From a virus (taxonomy: Duplodnaviria > Heunggongvirae > Uroviricota > Caudoviricetes > Ackermannviridae), in the IMG/VR virus record IMGVR_UViG_2974516482_000001, positions 31,225 to 95,224 of that record: a stretch of DNA of 64,000 nucleotides; one strand, given 5' to 3'. This document shows positions 21,550 through 28,151 of the stretch, piece by piece (the stretch's first letter is position 1; every line of letters begins with the position of its first letter). A program made the position numbers and the translations under genes. The notes below the pieces were generated by a model. It did no database searches, was not told the origin of the DNA, and saw nothing but the letters and a program-made list of their open reading frames with translations.

Positions 21550-21660
21550 TCTGACTTATCCTAAGCCTTTCAATAACAATAACGCCCAGTATATTTGCCG
21601 GGCGTTTCATTTAACAACCACAGTATAATACGGCTGTACAATACACCATGAGGCTACATT

Positions 21661-22515
21661 ATGTTTCGTTTGAAATTGAACGACCAAGATGTGTTCTATA
21701 AACACTTCACCTTTCCAGGCGGTGAAGAACACGTCAAGATCCAAAAGGCGGGTATCCCTGTCGCCAAAGTCCAGAAGGTGAAGATTGACGCCCACATTAA
21801 ATCATCAGCCGACTTTATTGAGCTGGCGTTGTTAGTCAATGCTGTGCGTGGGCTGAGTAATGTGGATCGCATGACCACCTTCCATGCATGCATCCCTTAC
21901 TTCCCGTATGCTCGCCAGGATCGTCATTGCGACTTTGGTGAACCTCTGTCTGTGAAGTGGGCTGCTGAGTTTATCAATAGCATGAACTTTGACCGTGTGG
22001 CCATCTATGATCCACACAGCCATGTTGTCACCTCTCTGATTAACAACGCCCATGTCGTACAACAGGATTACATTGTTCGCCAGTATCTGGGTTGGTTCAT
22101 CCGTGGAAACAATGCTGTGCTGGTAGCCCCCGACGGCGGCGCGGCCAAGAAGACCGAAACCCTCAGCCTGTCTATGGGTGGTGTTCCTATCATTTACGGA
22201 CACAAGAACCGTGACACCAAGACAGGCGAGATCATTGGGGTGAGTATTACAAACCCTGAATTGATCAAAGACCGCTATCTGGTTGTGGTCGATGACATCT
22301 GCGACGGCGGGCGCACGTTTGTTGAGCTGGGCAAAGAGCTTCAGAAGCACAAGCCTAAGCACATGACGCTCTTCGTTACCCATGGCATCTTCAGCAAAGG
22401 TCTCTCTGTGTTCGACGGGATTTACGATGCTGTGTATGCCGACACTGTCTGGTGGGAGAACATCACCGCCGACGGTCTTCCATTCAAAACTGAAAATACA
22501 GGACGTGTAAAATGA
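21661..22515 (+). CDS. ribose-phosphate pyrophosphokinase-like enzyme (PRS family; candidate ADP-ribose pyrophosphokinase of an NAD+ reconstitution pathway)
   Basis: PRTase signature VVVDDICDGGRTF. VLVAPDGGAAKK. 284 aa. ATGA overlap with the downstream NAMPT-like gene. Confidence 0.8.
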   Translation: MFRLKLNDQDVFYKHFTFPGGEEHVKIQKAGIPVAKVQKVKIDAHIKSSADFIELALLVNAVRGLSNVDRMTTFHACIPYFPYARQDRHCDFGEPLSVKWAAEFINSMNFDRVAIYDPHSHVVTSLINNAHVVQQDYIVRQYLGWFIRGNNAVLVAPDGGAAKKTETLSLSMGGVPIIYGHKNRDTKTGEIIGVSITNPELIKDRYLVVVDDICDGGRTFVELGKELQKHKPKHMTLFVTHGIFSKGLSVFDGIYDAVYADTVWWENITADGLPFKTENTGRVK

Positions 22516-24176
22516 GCATGCGCCACTTAGATCCAATCCATGCAATCGACTTCTACAAATCAGGGCATATCTATCAATTCCCTGAAGGCAGCGAGCTGGT
22601 GTTCTCCAACGGAACTCCGCGCTCCAACAAACTGTTCAACTCTCACCTGCCGAAGAACGGCGTGGTGGTCTGGGGCATCCAGGGCTTCATGACCTGGTTC
22701 CATGAACTGTTTGATGAAGCGTTCTTCCAGCGCCCGAAAGCCAAGGTGCTGAAGAAATATGCCCGTCGCATGAACAAAGTGCTTGGTCCAGGCCGCGTCG
22801 GCACAGAGCATATCGAAGCCCTGCACGACCTCGGCTACCTGCCTATCGAAGTCCGTGCTCTGCCCGAAGGCACCATGTGTCCGTATGGCGTTCCGGTGTA
22901 TGTGATGTTCAACACCTTGCCGGAGTTCTACTGGCTGACCAACTATCTGGAGACTGTGTTCAGTTCCGAGATCTGGAAACCGATGACGAACGCCACCATC
23001 GCCCTGCATTATAAGGCGCTGATGGTGAAAGCCGCTATCGCTACGGGTGTGTCACCAGACCATTGGTTCATCGATTACCAAGGCCACGACTTCTCCTTCC
23101 GTGGTATGAGCGGTTGGCATGATGCCGCGTCTTCCGGTTCTGGCCATCTGGTATTCTTCAAAGGCACCGACACCAACCCTGCCCTGGACTTCGTAGAAGA
23201 GTATTATGGCGTAGACATCGACGAAGACTATGTTGTTGCCGGCTCTGTTGCGGCTACCGAACACGCCGTGATGTGCATGGGCACGAAGGATGGTGAATTC
23301 GAAACCTTCCGCCGCCTGGTGCAGGACGTGTATCCTGATGGCATCGTCAGCATCGTGTCCGACGCATGGGATTACTGGCAGGTCATCGACGACTATCTGC
23401 CTCGCCTGAAAGACATTATCATGGCGCGTAACGGTAAAGTCGTGATCCGCCCTGACTCGGGCGACCCTGTACACATCGTTGGCGGCTACCGCATTGAATC
23501 ATTCCGCAATCGCGGGACGCTTCAGTTAAGCAGCGTGTCCAGCAGCACCGAAGTCATCCACATCGAAGAGACGAACACATATCACCTGATCACAGGCGAA
23601 GGCACGATCAACTCTCTGATGGCAGATGACCGCAATATCATCAGTCGTTCAGAAGCGGTCGGCTCTATCCAGCGCCTGTGGGAGATCTTTGGCGGAACCC
23701 AGACTGAAACTGGTCACTTCCTGTTGGACGAACACATCGGTCTGATCTACGGCGATTCCATCACCCTGGCACGTGAAGACCAGATCTTTAGCCGTCTGGC
23801 TGGCCGGAACTTCGCTTCCATCAACGTGGTGTTCGGTATCGGTTCCTACACCTACCAGATGAACACCCGTGACAGTACTGGCACGGCAGTGAAAGCGACG
23901 GCTGGTAAGGTGAACGGTGAATTCCGCGAAATCTTCAAAGAGCCGAAGACCGACAAAGGCGGGACTAAAAAGTCTGCGCGTGGTTTCCTTAAAGTCATTA
24001 AAGACTTTCAGGGTAAACTAGTGTTGGTTGACGGTATCACCTTTGATCAGGTGCAAGACGCCGACAACCAGCACCAGCTGGTGTACCGCGATGGCAAGTT
24101 CTTCAACACCCAAACGCTGGAAGATGCGCGTGTCCGCGCCGCTCCTCTGGTGGTAGAATTGGCCTCACAAATCTGA
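22512..24176 (+). CDS. nicotinamide phosphoribosyltransferase-like enzyme (NAMPT/NadV family; candidate nicotinamide ADPR transferase)
   Basis: 554 aa NAMPT-family product (GTDTNPALDFVEEYYG, AATEHAVMCMG, PDSGDP motifs). Translationally coupled to the PRS-like gene. Confidence 0.8.
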   Translation: MSMRHLDPIHAIDFYKSGHIYQFPEGSELVFSNGTPRSNKLFNSHLPKNGVVVWGIQGFMTWFHELFDEAFFQRPKAKVLKKYARRMNKVLGPGRVGTEHIEALHDLGYLPIEVRALPEGTMCPYGVPVYVMFNTLPEFYWLTNYLETVFSSEIWKPMTNATIALHYKALMVKAAIATGVSPDHWFIDYQGHDFSFRGMSGWHDAASSGSGHLVFFKGTDTNPALDFVEEYYGVDIDEDYVVAGSVAATEHAVMCMGTKDGEFETFRRLVQDVYPDGIVSIVSDAWDYWQVIDDYLPRLKDIIMARNGKVVIRPDSGDPVHIVGGYRIESFRNRGTLQLSSVSSSTEVIHIEETNTYHLITGEGTINSLMADDRNIISRSEAVGSIQRLWEIFGGTQTETGHFLLDEHIGLIYGDSITLAREDQIFSRLAGRNFASINVVFGIGSYTYQMNTRDSTGTAVKATAGKVNGEFREIFKEPKTDKGGTKKSARGFLKVIKDFQGKLVLVDGITFDQVQDADNQHQLVYRDGKFFNTQTLEDARVRAAPLVVELASQI

Positions 24177-24215
24177 TAACTGAAGGGGAGGGAACTCCCC
24201 GTTTGAGGTCGAGAA

Positions 24216-24389
24216 ATGTCCAAACCATTCAAAAATGCGGGTGTCGACAACCTCGACCGCCGCTTTACTCCATCGGAAACGCTGATGAGTCAGATTGAGA
24301 CTAATCGCGAATTCATAGAACACATGCTGGCGAAGCCGGAAGGTGAAGCCGTCCATACCACTAAAGAAGGTAATAACGATGATTGAATC
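24216..24389 (+). CDS. small hypothetical protein (57 aa)
   Basis: Follows the hairpin at 24185-24203. Its stop overlaps the VWA gene start (ATGATTGA). Confidence 0.35.
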
Positions 24390-26595
24390 ATTAACATTTA
24401 AGAATGCGGTTGCGACCGTCGCGCCGTCTAACCATGTAATCGTTGTGGATATCTCCGGTTCCATGTATCGTTCACTTCCAGAAGTCCGTAAGCATCTGAA
24501 GGAGAACCTGCCTTCCCTGGTGAAACCGGAAGATACTGTGAGCATCCTTTACTTTTCATCTCGCGGTGATTTCGGAACGGTATTTGCCGGACGTCAGATT
24601 AACAGTGCAACTGATCTCAGTGAGATCAATAATCTAATTGACCGTTTCCTGAAGCCTTCTGGTTGTACTGGTTTTGTTGAGCCGCTGAAATTGGCTGCGG
24701 AAACTGCCATTAGTCTGAATAAACCTGGTTATGTTAACAACCTGGCATTCATGACCGACGGATATGACAACTGCTGGCGTTCTAATGAAATCCTGGATGC
24801 CGCTGAAGTACTGCCCAAAGCGTTTGATAACATTACCTTCATCGAATACGGTTGGTATTGTAATCGCGAACTGCTGGCGCTAATGGCAGAACGTTCTGGT
24901 GCGACCCACGTATTCGCCGAAGGCCAGAATGAATATCAGACCGAATTGGAAAATGTACTGAAATCATCTACGCCGAAAGTGGTTGTTGATGTTCCCCTGG
25001 TTTACACTCATGCCATCTACGTTGAAAACGGCGTGGCAACTGTTTTAGCCGTACAACCTGATGAAGAACACCCGATTGGCCACGTCAGCATCCCTGAAAG
25101 CGTTTCTCAGCTGTGGGTTGTAAACCCCAACATGATCGACCAGCTGGATAATCTGGCAGACACCCAAGCGGCATACGTGCTGGCATTCTATGGCGTGTAC
25201 ACCATGGACGCCGATCTGGTCTGGGCCGCGCTGAAGAAGACGGGTGACGTCCGCTTCATCAAACAGTACAGCAACTGTTTCACCAAGCAGGATTACTCCA
25301 ACATCAAAGTTGATCTGACTCAGGCTATCGTAGACGAATCTCTGCGAGGAGTTGATGGCATCGATTATAATATGGTTCCGGCTGAAGACGCCACCACCAT
25401 TGTTGATGTTCTGACGTATCTGGCTGAAGCAGATGTCTCTATCGTCACCAAGCATCCGCTATTCTCTTACAAGAGCATTGGGCGCGGTACTGTACAGAAA
25501 GTTGATGACACCGAAGACAAGTTGGCCGAAGAGATTGCGAATGCGACTTCTAAAGAAGAGCGTAAAGCCCTGGCGCTCAAACTGGCCGAGCACGAAGATT
25601 GGACCCCCGAATTCAATCCAGCAGATGATAAAGGGATTGTCCCGATCAGCAATTTGGTCTATAATTCAGAACGCCCTAACATCAGTGTGCAGACAGTTCA
25701 ACACGGAACGGTTGTTGTGCCTGAGTTTGTACAGAAGAAATATGAACTTCCTGAAGAGCTGGGAACCTGGCGTTATCGCAATTACACCATTGTCAAGGAT
25801 GGTATCATCAACCTGAAAACAATGCCTATCACTGCGGATTCTCCGATTGTTCGGGCTAAGGTGGCACAGGATTTGACTGCCATGGGTGTTCATGTGTTTG
25901 GTGGACCGGAAGTCTTCATTGTAAATCTGGAAAGTGTCCCAATGGTTAACCGCGCTATGACAAAGAATATCAGTGCTGCTGAATTCTTTGCAGACAATGT
26001 GCACCGTGAAGCATTGAAGGCGAAACAAAAAGTTCTGAAATTCTATCGTGATGAGCTGGTTGGTAAAGGCAATGCTGCTGGTTTGGCTTCAAAATATGGC
26101 AAAGAAGCGGCTGATTTCCTGTCAGCAAACGGCATTCGCGACTATGGATTTTCACCGAAGACTTCTTCTGTAGAATCAACCGATGTCTATATGAGTCGTG
26201 AATTGAATGTGAAAATCAAAGGCGCATCTTCACTGCCGAGCATCGCGTCTGTTATCAAAAAACAGACGGACGGTAAAAAACTGAATGTCGCTGATCAGTT
26301 GATTGCTAATGCTCTGGCCGAATACAACGCTTTCGTTAAATCGCCAATGATCACCAGCGTACCTGAAGAGACTCAGAAAAAGCTGATTGAAAGCTGGATC
26401 GGAGACGCAGCAAAAGCGGCCATTAACGAAGTCCGCGCCCTGAACAAAACGCTGTCCAAGGTAGTTTATGGGATTGTTGCAGGCCATGGTTGGTTTACCG
26501 ACCTGGATTTGGAAGAATCCACTATGGATGTGGAAGTTGATGGGGTGAAATACACCGTCACTGCCGAACTGGCCGAAAAAGAAGTCAAAATCTAA
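24379..26595 (+). CDS. von Willebrand factor A (VWA) domain protein, 739 aa
   Basis: N-terminal MIDAS-type motif VVVDISGSM and subsequent VWA-like strands. Long C-terminal region of unknown function. Confidence 0.7.
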   Translation: MIESLTFKNAVATVAPSNHVIVVDISGSMYRSLPEVRKHLKENLPSLVKPEDTVSILYFSSRGDFGTVFAGRQINSATDLSEINNLIDRFLKPSGCTGFVEPLKLAAETAISLNKPGYVNNLAFMTDGYDNCWRSNEILDAAEVLPKAFDNITFIEYGWYCNRELLALMAERSGATHVFAEGQNEYQTELENVLKSSTPKVVVDVPLVYTHAIYVENGVATVLAVQPDEEHPIGHVSIPESVSQLWVVNPNMIDQLDNLADTQAAYVLAFYGVYTMDADLVWAALKKTGDVRFIKQYSNCFTKQDYSNIKVDLTQAIVDESLRGVDGIDYNMVPAEDATTIVDVLTYLAEADVSIVTKHPLFSYKSIGRGTVQKVDDTEDKLAEEIANATSKEERKALALKLAEHEDWTPEFNPADDKGIVPISNLVYNSERPNISVQTVQHGTVVVPEFVQKKYELPEELGTWRYRNYTIVKDGIINLKTMPITADSPIVRAKVAQDLTAMGVHVFGGPEVFIVNLESVPMVNRAMTKNISAAEFFADNVHREALKAKQKVLKFYRDELVGKGNAAGLASKYGKEAADFLSANGIRDYGFSPKTSSVESTDVYMSRELNVKIKGASSLPSIASVIKKQTDGKKLNVADQLIANALAEYNAFVKSPMITSVPEETQKKLIESWIGDAAKAAINEVRALNKTLSKVVYGIVAGHGWFTDLDLEESTMDVEVDGVKYTVTAELAEKEVKI

Positions 26596-26603
26596 ATTCA
26601 TCT

Positions 26604-26628
26604 GGCGGGGAAACCCGCCTTTACTTTC
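26604..26628 (+). terminator. hairpin terminator
   Basis: ggcgggg-aaa-cccgcc-tttacttt. Confidence 0.5.
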
Positions 26629-26639
26629 AGGAAATGAAT

Positions 26640-26963
26640 ATGAGCAACAAACCGACTTATGTTGAGGTGATGCGCCACCTGGCTCAGTACTCCACAGAGA
26701 ATCTGAATATGGATCTGTGGCGCGACGATGACAAGCGCAAACTACTGGATGACGTGGCGGCTCAAAACGAAGACGCTCTGGACAAGCTGGCTGGCCTCCG
26801 CACCAAGAAAGACCTTGGCGGCGACGAACTGGATGCCATCGAAATTGTGATGGACTTGGAAGAAGAGTTTCAGGTTGAAATCGAAGACGGCTGGCTGGGC
26901 AGTAAAGGCGATGACCCGACCATGGGTGAACTCGCCGAACTCGTGGTTGCCCTGTGTAAATAA
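26640..26963 (+). CDS. acyl carrier protein-like protein with Ser-to-Glu substitution at the phosphopantetheine site
   Basis: DLGGDELDAIEIVMDLEEEFQVEIED aligns with E. coli AcpP [26 protein letters not shown]. The DSL serine is E here. About 50-aa N-terminal extension. Confidence 0.65.
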   Translation: MSNKPTYVEVMRHLAQYSTENLNMDLWRDDDKRKLLDDVAAQNEDALDKLAGLRTKKDLGGDELDAIEIVMDLEEEFQVEIEDGWLGSKGDDPTMGELAELVVALCK

Positions 26964-26969
26964 TAGAAG

Positions 26970-26994
26970 TCCCCAACGTTTGTTGGGGATTTTT
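26970..26994 (+). terminator. rho-independent terminator
   Basis: tccccaac-gttt-gttgggga-ttttt. Confidence 0.55.
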
Positions 26995-27005
26995 ACTTTT
27001 AGGGG

Positions 27006-27034
27006 TTTACTTCTTCTAAAGAATATCCTATTAT
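27006..27034 (+). promoter_or_regulatory. early promoter cassette TTTACT-17-TATTAT
   Basis: Same -35/-10 architecture as the 5695, 43073, 49321, 57055 and 57523 cassettes. Confidence 0.35.
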
Positions 27035-27086
27035 TCAATAGCTGGCGAACGATGGGTTCACCAGGTTGAAAGGTATCAAATACATC

Positions 27087-27326
27087 ATGTCTAAGAAGAA
27101 AGTAGAAACAGCCGTAGAAATTGATCGTAATTGGGGATTACTCCGCGCTAAAGGTTTTCGTCGTGTTTATATGACCAAGGAAGTTTATGTTCAGCGTCGC
27201 GACGTTATTATCAGCAAGAAAGGTAAAGAGTGGGTTGCTGAAGAAGTTGACATTGAAACGGGTGTCGTCGGTAAGGTTAAAGCCAAGGCCGCGATCCTCT
27301 TCGCTCTTCTGAAGTATATCAATTAA
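27087..27326 (+). CDS. hypothetical protein (79 aa, basic)
   Basis: ORF behind the promoter cassette. Confidence 0.4.
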   Translation: MSKKKVETAVEIDRNWGLLRAKGFRRVYMTKEVYVQRRDVIISKKGKEWVAEEVDIETGVVGKVKAKAAILFALLKYIN

Positions 27327-27385
27327 TTCTATAAATTATGGCGGGGTATGATTACCCCGCCTATTTGAAATTCAGGAACTATATC

Positions 27386-27664
27386 ATGACAGATCAAAGA
27401 AGTATTGCTCGTTCGGAAATCAAAGATATTATACAGAGCAAAACCAACGAAACTCATGCTCAATCCAGAATGCTATCTCGATTTGTTGAAATTAAGTTTG
27501 ACATTGAAGAGAATAACAATCGGAGAGCGCTGGAGGGAATGTTGGCGATTATCTTGGGCCATGTCACCAATTCAGCATACGACATGGATGATTTAACTCG
27601 TTTGTTGAACGCCCAGAATAACGTTGGGACTTCTGTTCGCGAATTGCTGTTTAAGTCCGAATGA
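27386..27664 (+). CDS. hypothetical protein (92 aa)
   Basis: ggaactatatcATG context. The track start at 27338 lies inside the upstream terminator hairpin and is rejected. Confidence 0.4.
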   Translation: MTDQRSIARSEIKDIIQSKTNETHAQSRMLSRFVEIKFDIEENNNRRALEGMLAIILGHVTNSAYDMDDLTRLLNAQNNVGTSVRELLFKSE

Positions 27665-27701: not shown

Positions 27702-28151
27702 ATGTTTCTTACATCCTTTATTGACTGGATGAATATCATAAATGGCCTGAGGATTCCTGTTGGGAACCTCGGGCTTTCTCGTTCTTCTATGCCGCAAATC
27801 GATGCCGACAAACAAGAAGATTTTCACAAATATCTTGAAGACAACGGCGTGTCTATAGATGCTGCGCAAGTGCCCATCAAAATGCTTCGTCTTACCCAGA
27901 ACGAAATCAATAAAATGAAGGTCTGGAAGATTATGAAGCAGATCAGAAATAAGAAGCCCATGGGTCGAGTTTGGGTGTCTTCTGACAATTACGTTGTTGA
28001 CGGGTCTCACCGATTTGTCGCTGCGTTGAACATGGACGGCAAACAGCGCATGAAGGTCTACAAAGTTGATTTGCCAGCGATGGAATTTGTTAAACTCGCT
28101 AAACAGTTTCAGGGTGTGCGATACAGAACGGTCAGTGATAGTCGATACTGA
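27702..28151 (+). CDS. ParB-like nuclease (ParB/Srx fold) domain protein
   Basis: LRLTQNEIN ... YVVDGSHRFVAAL matches the ParB N-terminal domain signature (x-DG-HR-xAA). Confidence 0.5.
   Translation: MFLTSFIDWMNIINGLRIPVGNLGLSRSSMPQIDADKQEDFHKYLEDNGVSIDAAQVPIKMLRLTQNEINKMKVWKIMKQIRNKKPMGRVWVSSDNYVVDGSHRFVAALNMDGKQRMKVYKVDLPAMEFVKLAKQFQGVRYRTVSDSRY

Follow-up and report, generated by a model that had tools for sequence, protein, structure and literature searches.

What does a phage protein do that is annotated as an acyl carrier protein (ACP) and has no serine at the position where the phosphopantetheine arm of such proteins is attached? The question is raised by a gene at positions 26640-26963 (plus strand) of the window, the whole 64,000-nucleotide stretch of DNA analysed here. 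The gene encodes a protein of 107 amino acids that lacks this serine and has an ACP fold; it is identical to YP_009889191.1, 'acyl carrier protein', gp056 of Salmonella phage maane (NC_049508.1; Kuttervirus, Ackermannviridae), and the surrounding region (26000-27600) is 100% identical to the genome of that phage. In the list of open reading frames, the frame of gp056 opens slightly earlier, at 26634 (109 aa); the annotated ATG at 26640 is preceded, at a distance of 6 nt, by an AGGAAA Shine-Dalgarno sequence. The protein is strongly acidic (pI 4.2, net charge −15.4), with a charge equal to that of E. coli AcpP.

In RefSeq and PHROG 4154, the family of gp056 is given the name "acyl carrier protein" and classed as an auxiliary metabolic gene. 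A full-text literature search found no description of serine-less ACPs in phages, the only mentions being in annotation tables. One of these is a virion mass-spectrometry table, in which gp186 of phage Sajous1, a putative ACP, has a retrieval count of 1.

ACP fold and replacement of the attachment serine

The ACP fold proposed in the original prediction was borne out by profile and sequence comparisons. The Pfam model PF00550 (PP-binding) matched gp056 residues 58-101 with 23.8 bits, above the cut-off of 20.8, the match spanning profile positions 26-66 of 67, i.e. the C-terminal two thirds of the model; PF14573 scored 25.9 bits, under its Pfam cut-off of 32. All phmmer matches of gp056 among PDB sequences were ACPs (best E = 1.5e-5). 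Thus, gp056 carries the four-helix carrier-protein fold. HMMER aligned the segment K-D-L-G-G-D-E-L-D of gp056, without gaps, over E-D-L-G-A-D-S-L-D of the B. subtilis ACP, and the alignment of E. coli AcpP to gp056 by MAFFT had the same register. Because the two alignments agree, Glu63 (codon GAA, 26826-26828, plus strand) can be identified as the equivalent of the phosphopantetheine-attachment serine. The serine of the D-S-L motif at the N-terminus of helix II is absent from gp056, and the predicted change from DSL to DEL is confirmed.

A different residue might have been the true attachment site, so hydroxyl residues in the vicinity were inspected. No serine or threonine lies within 7 residues of position 63; the hydroxyl residue nearest to Glu63 is Thr55, which is not conserved (T, C, A or V among relatives), and the sole invariant hydroxyl residue of the family, Thr94, is distant, in a DDPT turn ahead of the last helix. 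An alternative attachment residue was ruled out on these grounds. Against the equivalogs of the housekeeping AcpP (NCBIfam TIGR00517 / PRK00982), gp056 reached at best 32 bits, compared to a cut-off of 70.45, and over residues 54-83 only. We conclude that gp056 belongs to the PP-binding superfamily by fold and sequence; the test for the defining serine was negative, which places the protein outside "acyl carrier protein" as a functional family. Judged from its sequence, gp056 cannot be a conventional acyl carrier: modification at position 63 is chemically excluded, there being no hydroxyl for AcpS- or Sfp-type enzymes, and so no acyl chain would be carried. The label "acyl carrier protein", attached to about 270 sequenced phages, therefore implies a function that this family cannot have, and many of the mislabelled phages are biocontrol candidates against Salmonella, E. 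coli O157 or Klebsiella.

Conservation across the family

A search space of 5.8 billion proteins yielded 38 clusters of gp056 homologues, every one of them 104-110 aa long. Residue counts were made on 26 aligned sequences, namely that of the window and 25 representatives. Position 63 is Glu in 24 of the 26 and Asp in the other two; L59, G60, G61, D62, L64, D65, I67, E68, E74, I81 and D83 are invariant, and E63, M71, E75 and E76 are near-invariant. Additional full-length relatives (P0039-P0046; 30-45% identity) were recovered by a profile search of 1.84 billion representatives, and all of these show D-E-L-D or D-D-L-D/S, with Glu or Asp at the serine site, as do 13 Ackermannviridae-type loci from IMG/VR. 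Ser or Thr at position 63 was seen in no relative examined, the only exchange being between Glu and Asp. Conservation of the acidic residue in related phages, a check that the original prediction had called for, is accordingly complete, and its inference that the protein is unable to carry acyl groups extends to the whole family, none of whose members can be a conventional carrier.

By tblastn, the gene is present in 272 phage records, down to 55-60% identity and with an invariant helix II; nearly all of these are enterobacterial phages (of Salmonella, Klebsiella, Escherichia, Dickeya, Shigella, Enterobacter and Serratia), and the full-length matches listed are all in genomes of ~110-170 kb. 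The acidic face of helix II is under strong purifying selection. With non-carrier scaffold subunits of the Plasmodium mitochondrial ACP type, the gp056 family shares an ACP fold, a lost phosphopantetheine (Ppant) site and purifying selection.

Predicted structure, N-terminal helix and recognition surface

An AlphaFold2 model of gp056, built with 26 homologues (pLDDT 75, pTM 0.67), has six helices, of which an additional one at residues 7-21 precedes the ACP core. This family-specific N-terminal helix (26658-26702, plus strand; Y7, V10, L14, N21 and L22 invariant) corresponds to a stretch that aligned to no ACP. Since the alignment of ACP helix I begins at about residue 30, the extension, which had been put at ~50 aa, is actually about 25-29 aa long and consists of one conserved helix. 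A second family-specific element is the loop W85-x-G87-x3-D91-D92-P93-T94 (26892-26921, plus strand), formed by invariant columns, which takes the place of the short helix-III region in canonical ACPs and is also found in the more distant relatives P0049, P0051, P0055 and P0058.

Between these elements lies the loop with recognition helix II, L59-G-G-D-E-L-D...E74-E-E-F...I81-E-D83-G84 (26814-26891, plus strand). In real ACPs, the acidic surface of helix II is the docking face for basic patches on partner enzymes. In gp056, this surface is the best-conserved part of the protein and is nearly as in host AcpP: residues 56-84 are identical to E. coli AcpP residues 30-58 at 17 of 29 positions, the residues corresponding to AcpP D35, D38, E41, E47 and D56 (gp056 D62, D65, E68, E74 and D83) are invariant, and those corresponding to S36, M44, E48 and E49 (E63, M71, E75 and E76) are near-invariant. 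Thus, the partner-recognition surface of AcpP is preserved in gp056, as expected of a decoy.

Transcription unit

Two hairpins surround the gene. One, GGCGGG-GAAA-CCCGCC at 26604-26619 (plus strand; dG −15, z −2.9), lies between the gene for a von Willebrand factor A-like (vWA) protein and the ACP-like gene and has a weak T-tract; the other, an intrinsic terminator, TCCCCAAC-GTTT-GTTGGGGA followed by TTTTT, at 26970-26995 (plus strand; hairpin 26970-26989, dG −19.6, z −4.4), is strong, and its palindrome was also flagged on the minus strand. Both hairpins are kept as structures, with different sequence, in the divergent loci L002, L003, L005 and L008. In relatives, the T-tract of the upstream hairpin is weak or absent (absent in L008) and the downstream element is always a strong terminator; the upstream hairpin is probably an attenuator or RNA-stability element rather than a clean terminator. 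No promoter-like element was found in the 20 nt between the upstream hairpin and the ATG of gp056, and for this reason gp056 is predicted to be cotranscribed with the vWA gene, as the last cistron of that unit. Of the original description of the gene as an independent cassette flanked by its own hairpins, the hairpins stand, being real and structurally conserved, and the independence does not: the gene lacks its own promoter, and other genes of the run are likewise set apart by hairpins, e.g. at 24185-24200.

Such G+C-rich hairpins occur at 24183-24202, after the gene for nicotinamide phosphoribosyltransferase (NAMPT), and at 21581-21606, before a PRPP-synthetase-like gene; hairpin punctuation is general to this co-oriented gene run and not special to the ACP-like gene. 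A sigma-70-like promoter was not found upstream of the PRPP-synthetase/NAMPT/vWA run, and the literature search turned up no paper on an Ackermannviridae transcriptome. Directly past the gp056 terminator, at 27006-27085, there is a sigma-70-like element, TTTACT-N17-TATTAT, followed by a leader hairpin of gp057; both are conserved in the divergent L005 and L008, and L003 has a similar pair. A new transcription unit, which host RNA polymerase would read, appears to begin here.

Gene neighbourhood

The gene preceding gp056 in the putative operon encodes the vWA protein (gp055; 24379-26595, plus strand; 738 aa; Pfam VWA), with an intact metal ion-dependent adhesion site (MIDAS; DISGS ... CTG ... 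MTDG); DxSGS and TDG are also present in its alignment to 8s05_A. This protein (phrog_2426) has no known function, and ~550 of its residues are of unknown fold. It ranges over Ackermannviridae, T4-like Straboviridae (Lw1, 48% identity) and phages of Shewanella (Thanatos-1), Alishewanella and Rhizobium. The start of the vWA gene is overlapped by a small ORF of 56 aa without a family match (24216-24386, plus strand), the third member of a trio of small ORF, vWA and ACP-like genes that are adjacent and co-oriented in all relatives with the N-terminal extension, including L002, L003, L005, L008 and L009. Obligatory co-occurrence of the ACP-like gene with the vWA protein was not found. The vWA gene is present in 497 phage records vs. 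272 for the ACP-like gene; in L010, L011, L012 and Lw1, the 3 kb on either side of the vWA gene contain no ACP-like gene; and in the Serratia Miltonvirus, a different gene follows vWA, with a 90-aa ACP-like protein encoded ~900 nt further on.

Just upstream of the trio, at 21661-24176, the PRPP-synthetase-like gene and the NAMPT gene (PF04095, 1e-31) form an NAD-salvage pair; L005 is without the NAMPT and PRPP-synthetase genes and has the vWA/ACP-like pair nonetheless. Among the neighbours of gp056, no phosphopantetheinyl transferase (PPTase), synthase or ligase genes were seen, nor were fatty-acid or polyketide genes found alongside it. The further neighbours gave no informative family matches, and none of them stood out as a candidate partner, of the LYR type or any other. 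A link with spanin or lysis genes was considered, as the ACP-like gene of maane lies 1.3 kb upstream of the spanins and a marine family described below sits beside endolysin-like, membrane-protein and lipoprotein genes; the association proved not to be general, since the neighbour of the phiMAM1 ACP-like gene is unrelated to i-spanin.

Two side observations concern the DNA downstream. The product of gp059 (27702-28151, 149 aa) matches ParB-like proteins weakly (phrog_1033, E = 0.0015), and its match to phrog_2859 is confined to the middle of that family (316-467 of 740); it is called 'putative structural protein' in other records, while relatives have the name 'RNA polymerase ADP-ribosylase' on a gene close by, and the annotation looks unreliable. 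In phages Det7, FEC14, PhaxI and SS9, the 1601-nt query (26000-27600) spans 2161-2516 nt in 2-3 aligned pieces, which indicates variable inserted DNA somewhere within this 1.6-kb stretch (noted for ~26990-27600).

Acidic residues at the serine site in other ACP-like proteins

IMG/VR was scanned at the DNA level with degenerate patterns encoding D-L-G-x-D-[E or D or S]-[L/F]-D-x-[I/V/M]-E. The patterns matched 35 loci with Glu, 37 with Asp and, with Ser, at least 120 in each of two sets; removal of 9 false positives left 63 acidic viral loci, compared to at least 240 with Ser. Only 13 of the 63 are of the Ackermannviridae type. The largest further acidic group is a marine viral family of 71-75 aa with the motif DLGAD[E/D]FD, in which Glu and Asp exchange (L015, L018, L021, L026, L027, L029, L032-L036, L038, L042, L049, L290, L294, L301, L305, L309, L310, L312, L314 and L324). 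The genes of this family always have an endolysin-like gene and a small Zn-ribbon ORF on one side and genes for a membrane protein and a lipoprotein (spanin-like) on the other, and are also near PhoH, DnaJ and peptide deformylase genes. A canonical-length DELD protein is encoded by L006, a phage contig on which ThyX and HNH genes were also found.

Among cultured phages, the Serratia phage phiMAM1 (Miltonvirus) encodes a 90-aa 'acyl carrier protein' with the motif DLWFDELD and Glu in place of Ser (5570-5842 of L014, corresponding to NC_020083.1 81875-82147); its gene and the end of a gene for a small membrane protein overlap, vWA is not adjacent to it, and the protein has no N-terminal helix. 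Its closest cultured-phage relatives among the sequences checked, PHM1_027 of P-HM1 (LELDSLD) and VPLG_00009 of Vibrio phage eugene (DLWMDSLD), keep the serine. Because cultured phages also encode such serine-keeping ACPs, the acidic state is best read as derived, having arisen or been kept in several lineages.

Among bacterial proteins from metagenomes, Asp or Glu at the serine site was also seen in ACP-like ones that bear a lipoprotein or signal peptide and are unnamed in databases (P0122, P0311, P0313-P0316, P0319, P0320, P0091, P0098, P0108, P0145 and P0181); the relatives of P0122 all have DLGADDLD. From their sequences, these proteins appear to be an exported non-carrier family with the ACP fold. 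The literature searched describes no function for the Miltonvirus, marine or exported proteins.

Proposed function and alternatives

The protein probably works by binding other proteins, and the likeliest description of it, as far as sequence can tell, is an ACP fold without carrier function that acts as a protein-binding module. As to what it binds, our preference is tentative and carries somewhat less than an even chance: gp056 may dock on host ACP-binding proteins as an arm-less look-alike and compete with AcpP. It would then be a dead-end look-alike of holo-ACP, in which the carboxylate of Glu63 takes the place of the cofactor phosphodiester, and the competition with AcpP would damp or redirect ACP-dependent processes. 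The candidate targets would include PlsB (glycerol-3-phosphate acyltransferase), AcpS, lipid A acyltransferases, SpoT, IscS and MukB. The small-ORF/vWA operon would supply the protein from its final cistron, with the conserved upstream hairpin probably setting the dose.

The mimicry of host AcpP suggested in the original prediction is plausible, and several observations are consistent with gp056 being a decoy. Obligate apo-ACP suppresses growth of E. coli, and accumulated apo-ACP inhibits glycerol-3-phosphate acyltransferase (PMC4736557). ACP binds IscS via D35 and D38 of helix II, and SpoT and MukB are ACP-bound as well; binding of IscS needs the phosphopantetheine arm, as S36T abolishes ACP binding (PMC13343975). 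This counts against the decoy: armless gp056 might bind arm-requiring partners such as IscS poorly. The Ser-to-acid change is found in unrelated phage ACP-like proteins with different gene neighbours and no common phage partner, and given this recurrence, a universal bacterial target fits better than a phage-specific one. The location of gp056 in a region with host-metabolism genes (PRPP-synthetase-like, NAMPT) was also counted for the decoy. Other points tell against a simple mimic. The score of gp056 against enterobacterial AcpP is 24.6 bits, and those against B. subtilis, plant and apicomplexan ACPs are 27-28 bits; gp056 does not resemble the enterobacterial protein more than the rest and represents an old phage lineage, not a recent copy of a host gene. 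The N-terminal helix and the W85/G87/DDPT loop, both with invariant residues, point to a dedicated partner or to a changed structure. Furthermore, Asp or Glu at the N-terminus of the helix may merely be the best structural substitute for phospho-Ser; the acidic residue alone is no proof of holo-ACP mimicry, because the exported lipoproteins, which never meet AcpS, carry Asp.

A first alternative is that gp056 serves the neighbouring vWA protein (738 aa) as an accessory subunit or ligand and would regulate or stabilise it; we regard this as rather unlikely, although the trio is adjacent and co-oriented in every genome with the N-extended version, even in L005 with neither NAMPT nor PRPP-synthetase genes, and no promoter separates the vWA and ACP-like genes. 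In integrin I-domains, a Glu or Asp of the ligand completes the metal coordination of the MIDAS; the MIDAS of the vWA domain is complete (DISGS, Thr, TDG), and Glu63 or its Asp counterpart might conceivably, in a purely conjectural detail, play the same part. However, the vWA protein does not require the ACP-like protein, as the excess of vWA records and the four vWA loci without an ACP-like gene nearby demonstrate, which weakens the idea and tells against an obligate partnership; the Miltonvirus protein is both displaced from vWA and devoid of the N-terminal helix; and with gene order conserved family-wide, adjacency is weak evidence. Less probable still, in our estimate, is a positive role, in which gp056 would serve as a cofactor or scaffold that stabilises or activates a host or phage complex with no acyl chain involved. 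The precedent is the serine-less mitochondrial ACP (mACP) of Plasmodium, which has no Ppant and yet is essential, since it binds and stabilises the complex for Fe-S biogenesis, Isd11-Nfs1 (doi 10.1101/2021.04.13.439690). Moreover, IscS is bound by ACP in E. coli (PMC13343975), and the ACP-like gene is present in essentially all Ackermannviridae. For gp056, though, the neighbourhood yields no LYR-type or other candidate partner, and sequence data alone do not separate such a scaffold from a decoy. ACP without its prosthetic group reportedly also supports the synthesis of membrane-derived oligosaccharides (Therisod & Kennedy 1987), which was counted in favour of the scaffold.

The remaining two explanations fare worse. 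Small acidic proteins are frequent among phage anti-restriction proteins, and a pI of 4.2 with a net charge of −15 would suit a generic polyanion or DNA mimic that blocks a DNA-binding host protein, e.g. a restriction or defence nuclease; we consider this very unlikely, given that the conservation sits in the ACP-specific helix-II motif with no periodic charge pattern, that canonical AcpP is equally charged and is not a DNA mimic, and that gp056 matched no defence or anti-defence family (PADLOC best E = 0.031). To our knowledge, there is no DNA mimic with an ACP fold. Scarcely credible, finally, is a cryptic carrier charged at another residue or through non-canonical chemistry of the carboxylate: the invariance of Thr94 and the annotation of gp056 as a carrier in databases speak for it, whereas Thr94 is far from the canonical site, the surroundings of position 63 offer only the variable Thr55, beyond 7 residues, position 63 itself alternates between Glu and Asp and is never Ser or Thr, the neighbours include no PPTase, synthase or ligase genes, and the TIGR00517 score of 32 bits falls far below 70.45.

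Implications

If gp056 is a decoy of AcpP, it would represent a new route of phage takeover, via a highly connected bacterial protein, and the target interface could guide inhibitors of ACP-dependent enzymes. A broader reading, which we consider doubtful, is that the acid-for-serine look-alikes form a widespread, unrecognised class of dead carriers, comprising arm-less phage phosphomimics of holo-ACP that jam or reprogramme the host ACP hub and exported bacterial envelope lipoproteins. The hub processes hit would be the synthesis of lipids and lipid A, the stringent response through SpoT and the biogenesis of Fe-S clusters, and the phages concerned would belong to several lineages unrelated to one another (Ackermannviridae, marine phages and others). 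The 63 acidic viral loci, set against at least 240 with Ser, together with the exported bacterial versions, suggest a general route from carrier proteins to pure binding modules. What was seen in the sequence is well founded, the name in the databases misleads, and the pattern extends beyond one gene; the mechanism is a proposal drawn from sequence comparison.

Comparison with known systems

Compared to the type II AcpP of E. coli and Salmonella (PF00550), gp056 has Glu or Asp in place of Ser, an additional N-terminal helical region of ~25 aa and the W-G-x3-DDPT loop in place of the helix-III region, and scores 32 bits against an equivalog cut-off of 70. It resembles the obligate apo-ACP mutants (S36 variants in E. 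coli, S39A in S. elongatus), which have an ACP fold without phosphopantetheinylation and provide a functional model of a decoy. However, those mutants are laboratory constructs with a neutral residue, whereas the change in gp056 is natural, acidic, phage-family-wide and accompanied by extra structural elements. Like gp056, the mACP of Plasmodium falciparum is a naturally occurring homologue of ACP whose prosthetic-group site has been lost, and it functions as an essential protein-binding subunit; unlike gp056, it is a eukaryotic organelle protein and pairs with the LYR protein Isd11 together with Nfs1. In place of the serine, Plasmodium mACP has Phe, which is not acidic.

The true phage ACPs (e.g. 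PHM1_027 of the Prochlorococcus phage P-HM1 and VPLG_00009 of eugene) share with gp056 the small ACP fold, the large phage genome and the annotation; in contrast to gp056, they keep the serine and may be real carriers. The closest parallels in the replaced residue are the 90-aa Miltonvirus protein, the marine D[ED]FD proteins and the exported DLGADDLD proteins, which show the fold signature and the change from Ser to Asp or Glu as in gp056, but have no N-terminal helix and other genomic neighbours. The exported bacterial look-alikes differ further in their lipoprotein or signal peptides, with which they are predicted to act outside the cytoplasm.
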